Assembly: GCA_016187835.1 (NCBI GenBank)
Contig: JACPIY010000104.1
Span: forward strand, 5,327-69,326
DNA: 64,000 bases
DNA from: Deltaproteobacteria bacterium
GTDB lineage: Bacteria; Desulfobacterota_D; UBA1144; Nemesobacterales; CSP1-2
Reading direction: 5' to 3'
Below the pieces are notes generated by a model that had not been told where the DNA came from, made no database searches, and saw nothing but the letters and a program-made list of their open reading frames with translations. Below are positions 1,902 to 55,974 of this stretch, piece by piece; positions within the stretch are counted from its first letter, which is position 1; each line of letters opens with the position of its first letter. A program made the position numbers and the translations under genes.

Positions 1902-3980
1902 TTATTTAGAGTTTATTTTTAGATTTTGAATCCTAAGGGAATTTCCCATAACAAAAAGACCGCTTATAATCATGGCAAGTGTTGCAATCACTGGTTTTAG
2001 AAGCCCCATTGCGGCAAGGCCTATTCCAATTGTGTTGTAAAAAAAAGCCCAGAAGAGGTTCTCTTTTATCTTACCTTGAGTTTTTTTTGCAAGTTTTAAA
2101 ACCCAAGGAATTTTTTTTAAATCATTCCCAAGCAAACTCGCATCCGCCGATTCACGGGTAATATCAACACCGCATCCAAGGGCTATTCCCACATCTGATG
2201 CGGCAAGTGCTGGAGCGTCGTTTATCCCGTCTCCGACCATAGCAGTAAGACCGTTTCTATTTTTCGATGCTTTGATTTCATTTACCTTATCCTGAGGAAG
2301 GAGTCCGCTTCTTACCTCAACTCCGAGATTCTTTGATAGAGCCTCACCAACAAACTTATCATCCCCCGTTATTACAAAAATATCTATGTCTAAGTCCCTT
2401 AAACTCAAAACAGCTTCTCCTGCTTCTTCCCTGAGTTCCTCGGAGAATCCCAGAATGCCTTTCACTTCTTGTCCCCAACCGCAGAAAGCCACCGTTTGTC
2501 CTTCTGATTCCAATCTTTTTTGTTCATTAACTATAGCTTCATTACGCACTAACCCTATTTTTTCCATGAATCTTCTACTACCTATATAAACAGTCTCGCC
2601 AAGTTCACCCACTTTTCCCTGAACTCCCATACCTGGACTAGCTCTAAATTCGGAGATCGGAATAAGTACGTAACCTTTTTTAGAAGCAAATTCACCTAAG
2701 CTTTTCCCTAATGGATGCTCGGAGGCAGATTCTAGAGAAGCACTAGTTGATATGAAATCTGATAAACTGATTCTCGAATTTGAATCAACAAAAACCGAAG
2801 AAATCTCCATCTTTCCCTTTGTAAGGGTACCCGTCTTATCAAAAAAGATTCTCTTTATATGAGAAAGCCTCTCCACAGTTTCTCCTGTTCGCAAAAGGAC
2901 TCCTTCTTTTGCAGCTCTTCCGAGAGCAACCCAGATTGCCATCGGAGCCGCAATCCCAAGTGCACATGGACAGGAGATAAGGAGGACGGAGAGTGAATTC
3001 ATAAGTGCAATGTTGATTCCCGATTTAAAACTCCAGAATATAAAAGTGAGAGCTGAAATCAGTATTGCGATGGGAATAAAAATCGCCGAAATTCTATCGG
3101 CTAATCTTTCAACCAGCGACCTTGACTTCCTTGCCTCTTCGAGGAGTTTAACAAGGCGGGATAGAATTCTTTCCTCTCCAACATCAGTCGCCTTGTATAT
3201 CAACATTCCGTCTATGTTTAAGGTACCTGAAATGACTCTGCATCCTTTTTCTTTAAAAACGGGCTTTGATTCTCCGGTAATCATGGATTCATCCACGCCG
3301 CCTTCTCCTTCGATTACCTCCCCATCCACAGCCAGACTCTCACCGGGGATAACTTTGACTATGTCTCCCTTTTGTAAGGACTGGCAGGAAACCTTTTTTT
3401 CAACTCCGTCTCTTATGATAGTTGCTTCTTTCGGACTGCGTTCCAGAAGCTCTTTTATTACGCTTGATGCCTGTGCTTTTGCGCTTGCTTCAAGAAATCT
3501 TCCCAATGTTACAAGCACAAGAATCATCGAAGCCGTATCAAAATAAACTTTTCCCTGAGACTTAAAAGTGGAAACGACAGAAAGAAGATATGCTGAGAAA
3601 GTTCCAACAACAATAAGAGTATCCATATTGAGCATGAATTCTGAGATTCCTTTTACCGAATTCCTTAAAATCGGGATTCCAAGAAAGATCATCACAGGAA
3701 TAGCGAGAACTAGCATAATGTAATTGACTTTTGAAGCGACACCTTCTTCAAAAGGGTAGAAGTAATCCGCATAACTCAGCACCATAACGTTCATGGAAAA
3801 AAATGCACCAAGCCCGAGTCTTGCGAGTATCCACAGGGCTTCTCCTTCTTCGCCTTTTTCACCGGTGATTTCGTGGGCAAGAACGCATCCGTAGCAACAG
3901 TATGATAGATTTTTCCGTAAGAGAGGTCTCTTAGGAAGCAGAAGTCCGCATTGATAGCAGGATTCAGCAGGTTTATTCAT
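1902..3980 (-). CDS. ccoI: P1B-type heavy-metal (copper) translocating ATPase, CcoI/FixI-like
   Basis: 692 aa; SCPCALGIAAP (CPC transport motif), DKTGTLT phosphorylation site, VGDGINDAPAL hinge; Cys-rich N-terminus CYQCG...CCYGC; sits downstream of the ccoNO genes. Confidence 0.85.
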   Translation of the reverse strand: MNKPAESCYQCGLLLPKRPLLRKNLSYCCYGCVLAHEITGEKGEEGEALWILARLGLGAFFSMNVMVLSYADYFYPFEEGVASKVNYIMLVLAIPVMIFLGIPILRNSVKGISEFMLNMDTLIVVGTFSAYLLSVVSTFKSQGKVYFDTASMILVLVTLGRFLEASAKAQASSVIKELLERSPKEATIIRDGVEKKVSCQSLQKGDIVKVIPGESLAVDGEVIEGEGGVDESMITGESKPVFKEKGCRVISGTLNIDGMLIYKATDVGEERILSRLVKLLEEARKSRSLVERLADRISAIFIPIAILISALTFIFWSFKSGINIALMNSLSVLLISCPCALGIAAPMAIWVALGRAAKEGVLLRTGETVERLSHIKRIFFDKTGTLTKGKMEISSVFVDSNSRISLSDFISTSASLESASEHPLGKSLGEFASKKGYVLIPISEFRASPGMGVQGKVGELGETVYIGSRRFMEKIGLVRNEAIVNEQKRLESEGQTVAFCGWGQEVKGILGFSEELREEAGEAVLSLRDLDIDIFVITGDDKFVGEALSKNLGVEVRSGLLPQDKVNEIKASKNRNGLTAMVGDGINDAPALAASDVGIALGCGVDITRESADASLLGNDLKKIPWVLKLAKKTQGKIKENLFWAFFYNTIGIGLAAMGLLKPVIATLAMIISGLFVMGNSLRIQNLKINSK

Positions 3981-3984
3981 CTTA

Positions 3985-4692
3985 TTAATGGGAGAAATGT
4001 CCCTTATACCCTAATTCAGAGACGTATGGTAAAAATGCTCGAGCAAGGGTTATTATCCCAAATATAACTATTACCAATCCCGGAACGCGGCTTATACTTG
4101 CTTTGAATCTCGGGGATAAAATTTCACCTAAATTCCCCAGGAGAAGCATAGTGGGAATCGTTCCCAAGCCCAGAGAAAGCATGGTTAATGCTCCTTTGTC
4201 TGGAGAACCGGATGCCGTGGCTTTAAATAGAAACGCATAAATAAGCGGGCAGGGGAGAAACCCGTTAAAAATTCCAAGATAAAACGGGGCGGCCAGGCTT
4301 TTATATCCAATTAAAGACGCCATTGCTTTTTTGAGGAACATATAAAAAGGGGTAGGACCGGGGATTGTTTTTTCGTTTAATATTCCAAGTATCTGAAGTC
4401 CTATCAGAACCATAAAAACCCCCGCGATGACTGAGACGATCACCTGCCCACTGAAAATCGTTTGCATCTCGTTAATCATAAGACTGAACGAACCGAATGC
4501 CGCCCCTAGAAATGTATATGTAAAAATTCTTCCAAAGTTATATAAAAGATGACTTGAGATTTTCCGTGTGGCGCTTCCTTTGGAAACAGATGCTATAGCA
4601 ATAGGAAAACCGCCACACATACCTATACAGTGAAACGAACCTACCATTCCGGCAACAAAAACAAGGATATATTCTATTAACATCAAATTCAC
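3985..4692 (-). CDS. DsbD_2/UreH-like polytopic membrane protein (HCxxMCGG motif), putative metal/thiol handling partner of CcoI
   Basis: 235 aa, ~6 predicted TM helices; motif SFHCIGMCGGF in TM1; 4-nt gap to ccoI. Confidence 0.5.
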   Translation of the reverse strand: MNLMLIEYILVFVAGMVGSFHCIGMCGGFPIAIASVSKGSATRKISSHLLYNFGRIFTYTFLGAAFGSFSLMINEMQTIFSGQVIVSVIAGVFMVLIGLQILGILNEKTIPGPTPFYMFLKKAMASLIGYKSLAAPFYLGIFNGFLPCPLIYAFLFKATASGSPDKGALTMLSLGLGTIPTMLLLGNLGEILSPRFKASISRVPGLVIVIFGIITLARAFLPYVSELGYKGHFSH

Positions 4693-4740: not shown

Positions 4741-5409
4741 TTACTCTTGTACTCGCAACTTCTCTAACTCTTCTGCCGTCCAGGGAGTTGTACGATCGGA
4801 AGTCTCTTTACGAATTTTATCTACCATATCCGGTGTGATTTCTTCTGCTGAGTTTCCCCAGCTCGTTCTTTCATGTGTAAGGACAGCAGCAATCTCCTCA
4901 TTTGAAAGCTTTGATCCCCATTCGGGCATGACGTTGTTATACGTCGTCCCTCTTACTTCTATAGAACCCTGTAGGCCGTTAAGTACAATGCGAATTGGAG
5001 TCTCAGGATCTTTGAGCAACCAATCTGATCCCGCCAGTGGAGGAAATGCACCAGGCAAACCCTGACCATTAGATTGATGGCATGCAGCGCAAACACTTGC
5101 ATAAACATGTGCCCCATCTACTGTAGGTTTTGTTTCCCCAGGCTTTGAAACTGTCGTCACTGGAGCTGCAGTTTTTCCTTCTTCTAATAAATGAACATAA
5201 GGACCGAATGTTCCTCCATATCGCCCCAGGTAAAATCCTGCCCAAAAGATAAGGAGAACAGAAATAATCCAGAGCCACCAGGGAGGGGGTTCAAGCCCTT
5301 CTCTTGGCTCCGGCGGTTCACGAAAAGCCTGCCGATGAAGATCATAGATGTCGTGTTTTTCTTCCTCAGGACGAAATCGCCATTCGGATTCCGGTCTTTT
5401 GTCACTCAT
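4741..5409 (-). CDS. membrane-anchored monoheme c-type cytochrome (CcoP-like third subunit)
   Basis: 222 aa; one TM helix (WWLWIISVLLIFWAGFYLG); single CAACH heme-binding site with downstream Met; overlaps ccoO stop by 8 nt. Confidence 0.6.
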   Translation of the reverse strand: MSDKRPESEWRFRPEEEKHDIYDLHRQAFREPPEPREGLEPPPWWLWIISVLLIFWAGFYLGRYGGTFGPYVHLLEEGKTAAPVTTVSKPGETKPTVDGAHVYASVCAACHQSNGQGLPGAFPPLAGSDWLLKDPETPIRIVLNGLQGSIEVRGTTYNNVMPEWGSKLSNEEIAAVLTHERTSWGNSAEEITPDMVDKIRKETSDRTTPWTAEELEKLRVQE

Positions 5410-48965: not shown

Positions 48966-48994
48966 GTAGAGACGACCCGGCGGGTCGTCTCTAC
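48966..48994. repeat. 29-nt perfect palindrome GTAGAGACGACCCGGCGGGTCGTCTCTAC (REP-like) downstream of bioF
   Basis: Seen directly; 14-bp stem. Confidence 0.7.
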
Positions 48995-49079
48995 ATTAAA
49001 TCCAAAATCCCAATGTATTATTGTAGAGGTAACCCTTGCGGTTACCCCCTAAGCCATTATATGCGGGCTAGGTTCGCCC

Positions 49080-50268: not shown

Positions 50269-50328
50269 GTAGGGGCGAACGGCCGTTCGCCCACTAAATT
50301 AGGGCAGACACACTGGGGTCTGCCCCTA
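50269..50328. repeat. REP-like composite palindrome between bioA and bioF: GTAGGGGCGAAC, a 20-bp perfect palindrome (50273..50292), and hairpin GGGCAGAC-N8-GTCTGCCC ending CCCCTAC
   Basis: Seen directly; related unit GTTCGCCCCTACAA recurs at 49072..49085 on the other side of bioF. Confidence 0.65.
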
Positions 50329-52591: not shown

Positions 52592-52800
52592 AAAGACCCC
52601 ATCCCCTTTATACTTTAATGTAACCTTTCTGGCAAGTGAAATGAGGTCGGGAATCTGTTCTTTAGTCAGTTCGGTTAACTCAAGGGCTTCGTCAAAAGTG
52701 ATAAGCTCTTCTCTTTCTAGCAGCTTTTCTCTTACTATATCTAAAGTATTAATTTTAACCCTCCTCTATTTGACTGGTAAATCTTATTAACTGAAAGCTC

Positions 52801-52820
52801 CATTCTTGTCAACAAGAATG
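52801..52820. promoter_or_regulatory. perfect 20-bp palindrome CATTCTTGTCAACAAGAATG upstream of bioB (candidate operator)
   Basis: Seen directly; lies ~40-60 nt upstream of the extended bioB 5' end. Confidence 0.4.
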
Positions 52821-52971
52821 AGCCAGAGATGACATCCATGGCCTAATGATTTTCCAAAAATTTAATTGGATAAACATCAAGATAGGGTAAGCCCACCAGT
52901 CTTGCTGAGTCTTACTGATGGGTAAGAGGGTTGTCAGATAAGAATATCTGACCCACCATATCATGATTTTT

Positions 52972-52992
52972 GGTAGAACAGACATTCTTGTC
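52972..52992. repeat. left arm of 21-bp perfect inverted repeat GGTAGAACAGACATTCTTGTC
   Basis: Exact reverse complement at 53705..53725; flanked outside by a 20-bp palindrome at 52933..52952. Confidence 0.7.
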
Positions 52993-53144
52993 TTTTCCAA
53001 GATCGTTATTACCTACCAGGTATGACCAGGGTGAGCGATCCGGATGGAGGGTATCTAGGCAACCACAAGGTTATCTATTACCGGATTAATATTTGAAAGA
53101 GCATTAGACCAGAATCAAGAAATCAGCAGAGCATTAAAAAACGA

Positions 53145-53651
53145 TTAACCAAAAATTCTCTTTAACTCCTCCTGCAATTTGTCAATTTCAGTAATAATCG
53201 TTCCGCCGCTTGCTTGAATGAAATATTCGACTTGAAGATTCACTTTCGCCACTTCATTATCCGCTCTTAATCTGAAATCCCCACGGTATCCCAAAATAGG
53301 CTTTCCCTTGGCAAAAGCATATCCTATTTCCGCCGCAGTCCCACTGTCAACATCGGTGCCATCTAGGACGGCTACCAATCCATCCGAATCATCTATACCT
53401 TTTTTATTATTCCTGCCGATTTCAATATTGAGTTTTTTCCAAGCATGTAGTTTCTGAGAGAGATCAGTCATTGATTCTATTCTCTGTTTTTTTTCTATAG
53501 GAGTTAATGTCCAGGGATCAATGACTTGATAGCCAACTTGCTCAATCCTTGGAATTAGTTCTCGATAATAGAATGCCCTTCCAATTTCTGAGAATCCCAG
53601 AGGACTAGCCACATAAATTTTAATTTTTGAACCCATACTATTTTCCTCCAT
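53145..53651 (-). CDS. nucleoside 2-deoxyribosyltransferase-like protein
   Basis: 168 aa; KIYVASPLGFSE ... GTDVDSGTAAEIGYAFAKGKPILGY matches the Rossmann-like NDT/PurE-like 2-deoxyribosyltransferase fold family. Confidence 0.7.
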   Translation of the reverse strand: MEENSMGSKIKIYVASPLGFSEIGRAFYYRELIPRIEQVGYQVIDPWTLTPIEKKQRIESMTDLSQKLHAWKKLNIEIGRNNKKGIDDSDGLVAVLDGTDVDSGTAAEIGYAFAKGKPILGYRGDFRLRADNEVAKVNLQVEYFIQASGGTIITEIDKLQEELKRIFG

Positions 53652-53704
53652 TATATCTTCTGCAACGAGTAAACATTATTCATAGTAACGGACAATAGAA
53701 AACA

Positions 53705-53725
53705 GACAAGAATGTCTGTTCTACC
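53705..53725. repeat. right arm of 21-bp perfect inverted repeat (GACAAGAATGTCTGTTCTACC)
   Basis: Exact reverse complement of 52972..52992; flanked outside by palindrome GTCAGACATTCATGTCTGAC at 53753..53772. Confidence 0.7.
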
Positions 53726-53874
53726 AATATATAGCAACAGCATATATGGTAGGTCAGACATTCATGTCTGACATTCAACCAACAAAAATTTTTGTTGACA
53801 CTGCTTTCTTTTTTTGCGATGATATAAATGATTCATTTAAAAATTCCTGACTATTTAGAGGGGAGGTAATAGAT

Positions 53875-55350
53875 ATGGGATCTGCTGTTAGAAGATACGG
53901 ACTTTTTATTGACGGCAAAGAAATGGATTCCGTAAGCGGAAAGACTTTTATGAGAGAAAATCCCGCTACTGAGGAGCCTTTTGCGGAAATTGCAGAGGCG
54001 CAGAGAGAAGACGTAGATAGGGCAGTGAAGGCGGCAAAGCTTGCATTCGAGAAATGGCCGCACTTACCTCCTCGAGAACGCTCTAAATTTATCTATCGCC
54101 TTGCTGAAACGCTAGATAAAAATAAAGATAAAATTGCGCTCACAAACACTCTTGAGACTGGAAAGCCGATTCGTGAAAGCCGTGTCGTAGAGATAGGGAA
54201 TTCAGTAAGAACTCTGGAGTACTACGCAGGAGCCGCGACAAAACTAAACGGCGAGAGCATGTCTATTTCTGATGACCTGTTGACGATTACCTTGAGAGAA
54301 CCTGTAGGAGTTGCCGCGCACATAATTCCCTGGAACTTTCCCCTGCTCCTCTCATTCTGGAAAATCGGAGCGGCCCTTGCCGCTGGATGTACTATAGTAT
54401 TAAAACCTGCAACGGACACACCGTGTGGTATTCTGGAGTTTGCGCGCTTGGCTGCCGAAGCAGGACTGCCCGATGGGGTATTTAACGTTATTCCTGGGAG
54501 GGGAAGCATTGCAGGTCAGGCTTTGATAGAGCATCCTGACATAAGCAAGATCGCCTTTACAGGCTCAACCGAAGTCGGAAAGGGGGTTATGAACACGGCC
54601 TCACAGAGTATAAAAAGAGTTTCCCTTGAACTCGGTGGTAAAGCCCCTTGCATAGTTTTCGATGACGCGGAAATAGAAGAAGCGGTTGAAGCCAATCTAA
54701 GAGGAGGTTTCTTCAATCAGGGTGAAAACTGCACCGCTGTAACCCGTCTCCTTCTCCACGAAAACATTTATGCTAAGTTCTTATCATCATACATAGATAG
54801 GGTCAAGAAGATTCGAATTGATGATCCTACGAAAGAGGAAACCGAAATGGGCTCGCTTGTCTCCCGCGCGCAATTTGAGTCGGTAAAATCGTATTTTGAG
54901 AAGGGAGTCGAAGAAGGCGCTAAGGTTCTACACGGAGGAGGGCGTCCAAAGAAGTTTTCTAAGGGCTACTTCTTTGAACCTACGGTTCTCGCTGATGTAA
55001 AACCTACTTCAACGGTTGCCTGTGATGAGATCTTTGGCCCTATAGTAGCGGTCATACCGTTTAAGACAGAGGAAGAAGCAATAAGAATATCAAACGATAC
55101 AATATATGGGCTTGCAGGAGGAATTTGGACCCAGAACCTAAAACGCGCTCTCAGGATGGCAAAAGCTGTAAAAGCAGGATACCTTTGGGTAAACACCTAT
55201 GGAGGAATCATACCTGAGACTCCATATGGAGGGTTCAAGCAAAGCGGTATCGGAAAAGAGCTGGGGACGGAAGGACTCGAAATGTATCTGGAGACGAAAG
55301 CTGTAAATATATATCTCGGTGATAAGACTCCCAGATGGTATAAGGGTTAG
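53875..55350 (+). CDS. NAD(P)-dependent aldehyde dehydrogenase
   Basis: 491 aa; catalytic Cys (FFNQGENCTA) and Glu (LELGGKAP), NAD-binding FTGSTEVG. Confidence 0.9.
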   Translation: MGSAVRRYGLFIDGKEMDSVSGKTFMRENPATEEPFAEIAEAQREDVDRAVKAAKLAFEKWPHLPPRERSKFIYRLAETLDKNKDKIALTNTLETGKPIRESRVVEIGNSVRTLEYYAGAATKLNGESMSISDDLLTITLREPVGVAAHIIPWNFPLLLSFWKIGAALAAGCTIVLKPATDTPCGILEFARLAAEAGLPDGVFNVIPGRGSIAGQALIEHPDISKIAFTGSTEVGKGVMNTASQSIKRVSLELGGKAPCIVFDDAEIEEAVEANLRGGFFNQGENCTAVTRLLLHENIYAKFLSSYIDRVKKIRIDDPTKEETEMGSLVSRAQFESVKSYFEKGVEEGAKVLHGGGRPKKFSKGYFFEPTVLADVKPTSTVACDEIFGPIVAVIPFKTEEEAIRISNDTIYGLAGGIWTQNLKRALRMAKAVKAGYLWVNTYGGIIPETPYGGFKQSGIGKELGTEGLEMYLETKAVNIYLGDKTPRWYKG

Positions 55351-55362
55351 AGTTTAAAGTAA

Positions 55363-55531
55363 ATGATGGATTTCGAAGATACTATTTACGAAAAGGAACA
55401 AGGGATTTCAAAAATAACGATTAATCGTCCAGAGGTCTTAATCTCTCTTGAACTATACGGAAGAAGCTCATGAGGGAGTAAGTGCTTTTTTAGAAAAGAG
55501 ACTCCCTGATTTTTCTAAGTTTAGGAAGTAG
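55363..55531 (+). pseudogene. enoyl-CoA hydratase (crotonase) gene remnant: N-terminal 36 codons and C-terminal 19 codons only
   Basis: MMDFEDTIYEKEQGISKITINRPEVL (crotonase N-terminus) then stop; +1 frame reads EGVSAFLEKRLPDFSKFRK-stop (crotonase C-terminus); central ~200 codons absent. Confidence 0.6.
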
Positions 55532-55974
55532 CGCCATTATAATTATGAAACAGTTAATGTTTAGCCTGAAGCGGTCACGAGCAAGACTCGTGACCTACCC
55601 TATACAGCTCAGGATGCAGAAACGGGTAGTCCACCAGTCTTGCTGGTGGAATCATAGCATGAACATGGCGGTGAATGCCAAATTCCATAGAAAAGCAGCG
55701 TGCAAAATCCAGTCCACTTCCCTACAAACTTCGCGCCACTTTTTTGAAGAAACGCAGTCATCCCTTCCTTAAAACCCTGTGTTTGGAACACTTCATAAGC
55801 ACCATCCATTATTATTGACAAAATTCCTAAAAAAAGGTTATATATTTAGCGGCTGATTTTAGCCATATACCTGATTCTGATCTTAAATCGAACAACATAA
55901 TTCTTAAGCAATCTTAGGTACGGTCAAACCAAAGGCATAAAAGTCAGACTTGTAAACATCTGGAGGTAAAATTC

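Follow-up and report, generated by a model that had tools for sequence, protein, structure and literature searches.

The stretch of DNA considered here (the window) comprises 64,000 nucleotides of contig JACPIY010000104.1 from a Deltaproteobacteria bacterium and contains a nucleoside 2-deoxyribosyltransferase-like gene framed by short inverted repeats. The four repeat sites around this gene, S1 to S4, are very probably copies of a repetitive extragenic palindromic (REP) sequence of the GTAG type, paired in two inverted heterodimers that resemble bacterial interspersed mosaic elements (BIMEs) or REP doublets forming hairpins (REPINs), with one heterodimer in each intergenic flank of a resident gene. 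This kind of bacterial repeat is already known, and the particular REP sequence is common to unusually many phyla. What is mobile or repetitive is the small REP (24 nt) or the doublet (64 and 72 bp) and not a gene cassette of 840 bp. The appearance of an inverted repeat bounding a cassette arises because the REP copies are nearly identical and the two doublets are opposite in orientation. A false lead is removed at this locus, which is best read as REP doublets around a dispensable gene and not as a gene cassette, a switch or an operator array.

Architecture of the four repeat copies

The sequence GGTAGAACAGACATTCTTGTC occupies positions 52972-52992, and its exact reverse complement is found at 53705-53725. 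This 21-bp perfect inverted repeat had been described in a first-pass annotation of the window, together with similarity reaching outward, and both points are confirmed, since a repeat finder extends the inverted pair to 27 nt at 96% identity (52970-52996 and 53701-53727). When up to three mismatches are allowed, the 21-mer has three matches in the window vs. 0.00 expected, and the 16-nt core CAGACATTCTTGTCTG has five matches, which cover the four sites, vs. 0.5 expected; within the window, the 21-mer and its variants are found at this locus only. An in-register alignment shows that the four sites repeat a single asymmetric unit of about 24-26 nt, hereafter family A, with the consensus TGGT[A/G]G[G/A][T/A]CAGA[C/T]ATTC[T/A]T[G/A]TCTG. 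Each unit opens with a (T)GGT[A/G]G foot, behind which comes a hairpin whose stem measures 8-9 bp and whose loop has 4 nt. The unpaired 5' GT[A/G]G foot is present in all four copies, as GTGG in S1 and as GTAG in S2-S4.

The two inner copies are the arms of the 21-bp inverted repeat and have AA-type stems. In S2 (52973..52996, plus strand), the left arm, the GTAG foot is followed by AACAGACA-TTCT-TGTCTTTT, with a single stem mismatch at 52994, and in S3 (53701..53724, minus strand), the right arm, it is followed by AACAGACA-TTCT-TGTCTGTT. The two outer copies have GT-type stems, namely GTCAGATA-TTCT-TATCTGAC behind the GTGG foot of S1 (52933..52956, minus strand) and GTCAGACA-TTCA-TGTCTGAC behind the GTAG foot of S4 (53749..53772, plus strand). 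These outer sites had been annotated as perfect 20-bp palindromes, a description that does not hold: the left one reads GTCAGATA-AGAA-TATCTGAC, i.e., 8-bp arms around a 4-nt centre, and the right one GTCAGACAT-TC-ATGTCTGAC, i.e., 9-bp arms around a 2-nt centre. With arms of 8-9 bp around centres of 2 or 4 nt, they are hairpins with a small loop. Nor are they independent of the 21-mer, as had been proposed, all four sites being copies of one unit.

In both doublets the feet are directed inward. The left doublet (S1/S2, 52933..52996) is a heterodimer that combines a GT-type with an AA-type copy, and the palindrome ATCATGAT falls in the 16-nt gap between them; the doublet is placed 148 nt 3' of the stop codon of the enclosed gene and precedes the bioB promoter. 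The right doublet (S3/S4, 53701..53772) is an AA/GT heterodimer with a 24-nt gap that is AT-rich and partly palindromic, the spacers of the two doublets differing in both sequence and length. Folded as a single strand, the left doublet forms two hairpins (-12.7 kcal/mol, z -3.8) and the right doublet one long hairpin (-22.2 kcal/mol, z -8.8). All four copies are intergenic. The identical arrangement is found in five independently assembled metagenome contigs (L001-L005, from five sequencing runs), which shows that the repeats are not an assembly artefact, a possibility that had been raised earlier. At the outer edges of the segment, where the flanks (...AGGGTT on the left and ATTCAA... on the right) were read directly, no target-site duplication is seen.

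A perfect inverted repeat of 21-27 bp around a single promoter-proximal gene could also be the substrate of site-specific recombination or inversion, whether as an invertible element, an integron-cassette-like unit or an Xer-type module. Recombination or inversion, which the first-pass annotation had proposed, is the least credible of the readings considered here. The segment has the same orientation in the five independent assemblies and its repeats are dispersed REPs. The neighbouring genes, up to 10 kb away, have metabolic functions and include no recombinase, transposase, integrase, invertase, Xer gene or regulator, and no attC R''/R' core sites could be read in the sequence of the segment.

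Regarding other classes of element, an Rfam scan of 52600-54000 at E<=10 returned no family, just sub-threshold microRNA-like hairpin matches. Readings as a tRNA-like structure, a sigma-54 promoter, a clustered regularly interspaced short palindromic repeat (CRISPR) or a BirA operator were rejected on account of an unfit spacing or consensus. Tandem arrays of the unit in other genomes, such as those in L047 and L103, have identical "spacers", a further reason for the rejection.

Occurrence in other genomes and association with transposase genes

One genome per GTDB species (596 Gb) was scanned with the 23-nt degenerate pattern TGGTRGRWCAGAYATTCWTRTCT, for which about 0.5 chance matches are expected by our own estimate. 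The pattern was found at no fewer than 119 loci (L006-L124) in about 69 species genomes or more, belonging to at least eight phyla or lineages: Ignavibacteria/Bacteroidota/Kapaibacteria, Chloroflexota (Caldilinea and Ktedonobacterales), Acidobacteriota, Planctomycetota, Zixibacteria, Latescibacterota, Dadabacteria and Moduliflexus. Copies are conserved enough across phyla for a pattern of 23 nt to find them. The matches include complete chromosomes, and several genomes hold at least 5-10 loci each, e.g., at least 10 in the Caldilinea metagenome-assembled genome DYPX01, at least six in Latescibacterota OZ252149.1 and at least seven in Chloroflexota JAIFLK01.

Several features of the loci listed point to a hairpin that is kept as such. 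Compensatory stem variants are found among them (GGTCAGACA..TGTCTGACC, GGACAGACA..TGTCTGTCC, GAACAGACA..TGTCTGTTC and CAGGCA..TGCCTG, with CCGA/TCGG as a further one). Two stem positions covary with 3' partners that lie outside the search pattern, the pairs being Watson-Crick in 123/126 and 122/126 of the listed copies; 91/93 and 32/33 are paired (Fisher p ~1e-27, uncorrected for kinship). Only 10% of the listed copies fall inside stop-to-stop open reading frames (ORFs) of at least 300 aa, vs. 60% of random positions. Among feet-inward dimers of the listed loci, the AA/GT combination is the commonest (21/27), with a median gap of 15 compared with 16 and 24 in the window, and double-foot copies of the unit occur in L011, L080 and L097. 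A search of the literature for the core sequence gave no match, and the supplements of PMC3733652 do not contain it (figures not covered).

The units can also form tandem arrays with periods of 41 bp and 74 bp (L117 3648-4409; L047 ~2150-2330; L103 ~5000-5320). When these arrays lie in an open frame, they translate as repeated "GQTFLSV" peptides and may thereby give rise to spurious ORFs and protein clusters. For annotation it is useful to know that REP hairpins break assemblies, mimic terminators or operators and are translated as such repeats.

The wide distribution of the unit bears on a further reading of the locus, in which the sites would be paired operators: a dimeric transcription factor would bind the four palindromes, and possibly another at 52801-52820, and control bioB together with the enclosed gene and the adjacent aldehyde dehydrogenase gene (aldH). 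Such a reading agrees with the palindromic nature of the sites, with centre-to-centre spacings of 44 and 52 bp within the doublets (about 4 and about 5 helical turns), with the position of the right pair between divergent genes and with the recurrence of the 10-mer CATTCTTGTC in the bioB promoter palindrome. It is nevertheless very improbable. The genes that adjoin the motif in about 69 genomes, which span many phyla, are unrelated: when about 1000 ORFs in the vicinity of the listed copies were clustered, no shared neighbour family emerged, the largest cluster being the repeat itself in translation, and the sole recurrent neighbour is a REP-associated tyrosine transposase (RAYT). An asymmetric foot and strictly compensatory stem changes argue for a hairpin. 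Moreover, no regulator is encoded within 10 kb, orthologous loci in relatives lack the sites, and the palindrome at 52801 is just half conserved. The rule proposed in the first-pass annotation, according to which a 21-mer found only here, with relatives lacking the repeats, would indicate operators, would have been misleading at this locus, the decisive evidence coming from other genomes.

The link with RAYTs was established by screening every ORF of the loci with phmmer, for which IS200 and E. coli RAYT sequences served only as bait. Seven of the listed loci carry a RAYT-like protein. All seven score above the Pfam cutoff for Y1_Tnp (PF01797) and carry the HUH, WQ and Y..NP motifs; all match NCBIfam NF047646, "REP-associated tyrosine transposase", five of them above its 80-bit cutoff and two just under it, one of these two proteins being truncated by the end of the locus. 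For six of the seven genes, a REP copy is found no more than 150 bp away. Inverted REPs with the feet outward enclose some of the genes, as in L021 (3778(+)/4562(-)), and in L117 the REPs run into the stop-to-stop ORF of the RAYT. In the reciprocal direction, a profile of these RAYTs retrieved more than 6000 homologues, many of which are named "REP element-mobilizing transposase RayT" by JGI. Three were fetched, chosen only for their long contigs, and all three proved to be flanked by the REP: P0253 (Zixibacteria) and P0275 on both sides by this very REP, and P0285 on both sides by its compensatory variant GGTAGGTCCGATATTCTTATCGGACC. The RAYTs adjoining this REP are 27-56% identical to one another. 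The arrangement in which a RAYT gene is flanked by its own REPs (REPtron) is described for GTAG REPs in PMC3733652 and PMC6006769, where the descriptions of GTAG REPs, of TT/HH heterodimers and of REPtrons match the features found here.

By analogy with these systems, a RAYT transposase of the Y1/HUH type encoded elsewhere in the genome would recognize the single-stranded hairpin together with its 5' GT[A/G]G foot. It would then cut and rejoin single-stranded DNA, spreading REPs or doublets without target duplications. In E. coli, binding and cleavage of single-stranded REP by TnpAREP have been demonstrated biochemically (PMC3479197 and PMC8266576). The mRNA of the enclosed gene probably includes the left doublet at its 3' end, where the hairpins could stabilize or terminate the message and insulate the bioB promoter. 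The right doublet would sit between divergent promoters and leave the conserved aldH promoter undisturbed.

Among known systems, the Y and Z REPs of E. coli and their BIMEs (GTAG-3 family; Di Nocera et al., 2013) share with the present family a 5' GTAG foot, an imperfect palindrome, an extragenic location, inverted doublets of two stem subtypes and a single-copy Y1/HUH gene flanked by REPs. In the terms of Di Nocera et al., the doublets of the window are "TT" heterodimers, with GTAG inside. However, the sequence differs from that of the E. coli REPs, the short hairpin (8-10 bp stem, 4-nt loop) is almost perfect and has no bulges, and the family is spread across many phyla and not within one order. 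The RAYTs have [ND]H[IVL]H, WQ and Y[MI]xxNP motifs and on inspection of these come nearer to subclasses 2.4/2.7 of Quentin et al. (2018) than to the subclass of E. coli, 2.2. The REPs that go with TnpAY1 subclasses 2.4/2.7 also share the GT[AG]G foot, a long canonical stem, double-foot copies, the overlap of REPs with the RAYT ORF (here in L117) and a taxonomic spread given as "Cyanobacteria, Bacteroidetes and various phyla". The REPINs of Pseudomonas fluorescens SBW25 (Bertels & Rainey, 2011) share the two inverted REPs and a short spacer, the right doublet of the window forming one long hairpin. REPIN populations have been described as lineage-specific and vertically inherited, whereas the REP sequence found here is common to distant phyla. 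In addition, REPINs reportedly replicate as a unit using the RAYT in trans, while the replicating unit here may be either the doublet or the single REP, and the two window spacers are unlike each other.

REP/RAYT systems in general are usually described as lineage-specific and vertically inherited. A near-invariant 24-nt unit with an AA/GT doublet architecture is nevertheless found in at least 8-9 phyla, when the Thermodesulfobacteriota lineage from which the window comes is included, and the same REP beside RAYTs that are only 27-56% identical sits uneasily with the lineage-specific picture. One REP family across phyla might reflect either repeated transfer of REPtrons between phyla or an extreme constraint on the recognition code or host function of the hairpin, a tentative proposal that is judged nearly as likely to be right as wrong. 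The family bears in this way on the debate over vertical and horizontal inheritance of REP/RAYT systems, and it adds a record of GTAG REPs and their RAYTs from uncultured lineages, for which descriptions of REPs are very scarce.

The enclosed gene, its relatives and the limits of the REP explanation

The gene between the doublets (53145..53636, minus strand) encodes a nucleoside 2-deoxyribosyltransferase-like protein of 163 aa (PF05014). Its real start, 53636, is the second ATG of a 168-aa ORF and lies behind a GGAGG ribosome-binding site. The segment holds this PF05014 gene alone, and no transposase is found within 10 kb. The earlier description of a segment enclosing solely a deoxyribosyltransferase gene, without a transposase, was correct. 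That this gene is the cargo of a REP-bounded mobile cassette is highly improbable. In such a unit, REPtron-like or composite, the deoxyribosyltransferase-like gene would take the place of the RAYT, and a RAYT would mobilize the whole in trans. The geometry is REPtron-like, with the feet of S2 (+) and S3 (-) pointing away from the gene as do those of the REPs around RAYTs in L021 and L117, and this leaves the cargo reading a small probability. It also agrees with the presence of both family-A doublets of the window at one gene and with the variability, among close relatives, of the segment between the bioB and aldH promoters.

The close relatives, retrieved via the neighbouring aldH, provide the evidence against such cargo. 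In L132 (aldH 93% identical) and L133 (85%), the deoxyribosyltransferase-like gene is divergent from aldH and no family-A REP is present, the intergenic region between the two genes being 155 bp in L132 vs. 238 bp in the window. In L130/L131 (aldH 94%), a 121-bp 3' remnant of the gene is left, fused 4 bp from the aldH promoter (positions 4-123 of L131 and 1-68 of L130); in L131 the decayed remnant occupies the same place. L125 (aldH 94%) has bioA-bioB, two unrelated genes and then aldH, with no REP; the two genes in this bioB-aldH spot (2513-4111) encode a CarboxypepD_reg-like protein (89 aa) and a protein of unknown function (327 aa). Family-A REPs are thus missing from the orthologous intergenic regions of L132, L133, L125, L130 and L131 (aldH 85-94% identical). 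As the gene lies beside aldH without these REPs in relatives, it is a resident and not cargo. No homologue accompanied by these REPs was observed elsewhere.

Homology of L125 to the window stops at 52813 and resumes at 53776, which is 4 nt outside S4 (53772). On the left side it ends 120 bp outside S1 and not at a REP, and there is no target-site duplication. A candidate decayed REP in L125 at the S4-equivalent site (GGTGGTCAGTCAAGGATGAG) is too weak and was not used. Classical miniature inverted-repeat transposable elements (MITEs) and composite transposons likewise include short non-autonomous repeats, inverted symmetry and a gene bracketed by inverted copies. Here, by contrast, there are neither the terminal inverted repeats of DDE elements nor a target-site duplication, the enzyme is of the Y1/HUH type and the bracketed gene is ancestral. 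The MITE-like mobile cassette proposed in the first-pass annotation is thus retained for the small repeats and abandoned for an 840-bp unit carrying the gene, which is resident in L132 and L133.

The protein encoded in the window is not an outlier: among the relatives, the deoxyribosyltransferase-like copies share 68-78% identity, compared with 80-94% for the aldH proteins. A recently swapped allele, considered in view of the 71% identity of the window gene to those of relatives vs. 93% for aldH, was rejected, the relatives' copies being equally diverged (68-78%). The gene is an old resident, dispensable and fast-evolving, at a variable site flanked by two conserved promoters, and the REP doublets are later additions in this lineage.

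Several points weigh against reading the four sites as REP copies. The window has no RAYT gene, and none of the named matches of the RAYT profile comes from the source lineage Thermodesulfobacteriota/"Deltaproteobacteria". Only four family-A copies are found in 64 kb, all at one gene, so that a multi-copy status in the source genome is presumptive. Cutting and mobilization by a RAYT would, for this family, follow from the work on E. coli by analogy. The intergenic region that holds the upstream doublet is a divergent one, and REPs tend to avoid such regions (PMC3733652). The intergenic DNA of the relatives is too diverged for a base-exact empty site. The presence of both family-A doublets at one gene would arise by chance in an estimated few percent of cases, if doublets were placed randomly among about 60 intergenic regions, and may reflect local clustering of GTAG-foot palindromes.

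Neighbouring genes, promoters and other GTAG-foot palindromes

To the left of the segment lie bioB-bioA-bioF on the minus strand, and to the right aldH, an acyl-CoA dehydrogenase gene and a gene for an HpcH-type lyase on the plus strand. A promoter-like site for aldH (53795..53823, plus strand; TTGACA-17-GATGAT with a TG extension) begins 23 nt outside the right doublet and is conserved in relatives. For the enclosed gene, no convincing sigma-70 promoter was found between S3 and the start codon, manual reading included.

The half-site palindrome that had also been noted at 52801..52820 is present, with the structure CATTCTTGT-CA-ACAAGAATG and arms of 9 bp. It overlaps the TTGACA -35-like hexamer of the bioB promoter (minus strand), and only its left, bioB-proximal half is conserved in L125, where this half is the bioB -35 region. 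The palindrome is a feature of the promoter region, outside the REP family. As for bioB itself, a strong ribosome-binding site, GAGGAGG (52766-52760), is followed by no in-frame ATG, GTG or TTG, and the first in-frame start candidate is an ATT at 52753-52751 (minus strand, ~52751-52766 region). Gene callers start bioB 57-91 codons downstream, with products of 273 or 239 aa vs. about 330 aa. The bioB start may be non-canonical.

When the window was searched generically for GT[AG]G with a perfect hairpin of 7 bp or more behind it, 10 sites were found vs. 1.2 in shuffles, family A included, all of them within 48.9-55.7 kb. The intergenic regions here hold several kinds of GTAG-foot palindromes. 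Upstream in the window are double-foot palindromes at 48966-48994 and 50269-50294 and a GTAG-foot palindrome at 49023-49046, the double-foot forms reading GTAG...CTAC or GTAG...CCAC. The bioF ORF is listed with a GTG start that the palindrome at 50269-50294 overlaps, and its N-terminal extension is on this account probably not coding. Between aldH and the acyl-CoA dehydrogenase gene lies a second, unrelated GTAG REP doublet (55573-55598(-)/55626-55650(+)), a feet-inward heterodimer with the loop AGTCTTGCT, inside a segment of about 450 bp (55350-55797) that L130/L131 lack. Part of this doublet, a 15-nt fragment (CCACCAGTCTTGCTG), is found at 52893-52907.

Repeats of other kinds are found in L133, whose gene-aldH spacer (~3000-3040) carries a different GTAG palindrome (GTAGGAGCGTATGTCCATACGCCCC) and whose downstream region (3700-3778) carries repeated TTCCCGT-loop-ACGGGAA hairpins. 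As these differ from the repeats of the window, different repeat families occupy the same intergenic regions in related genomes.

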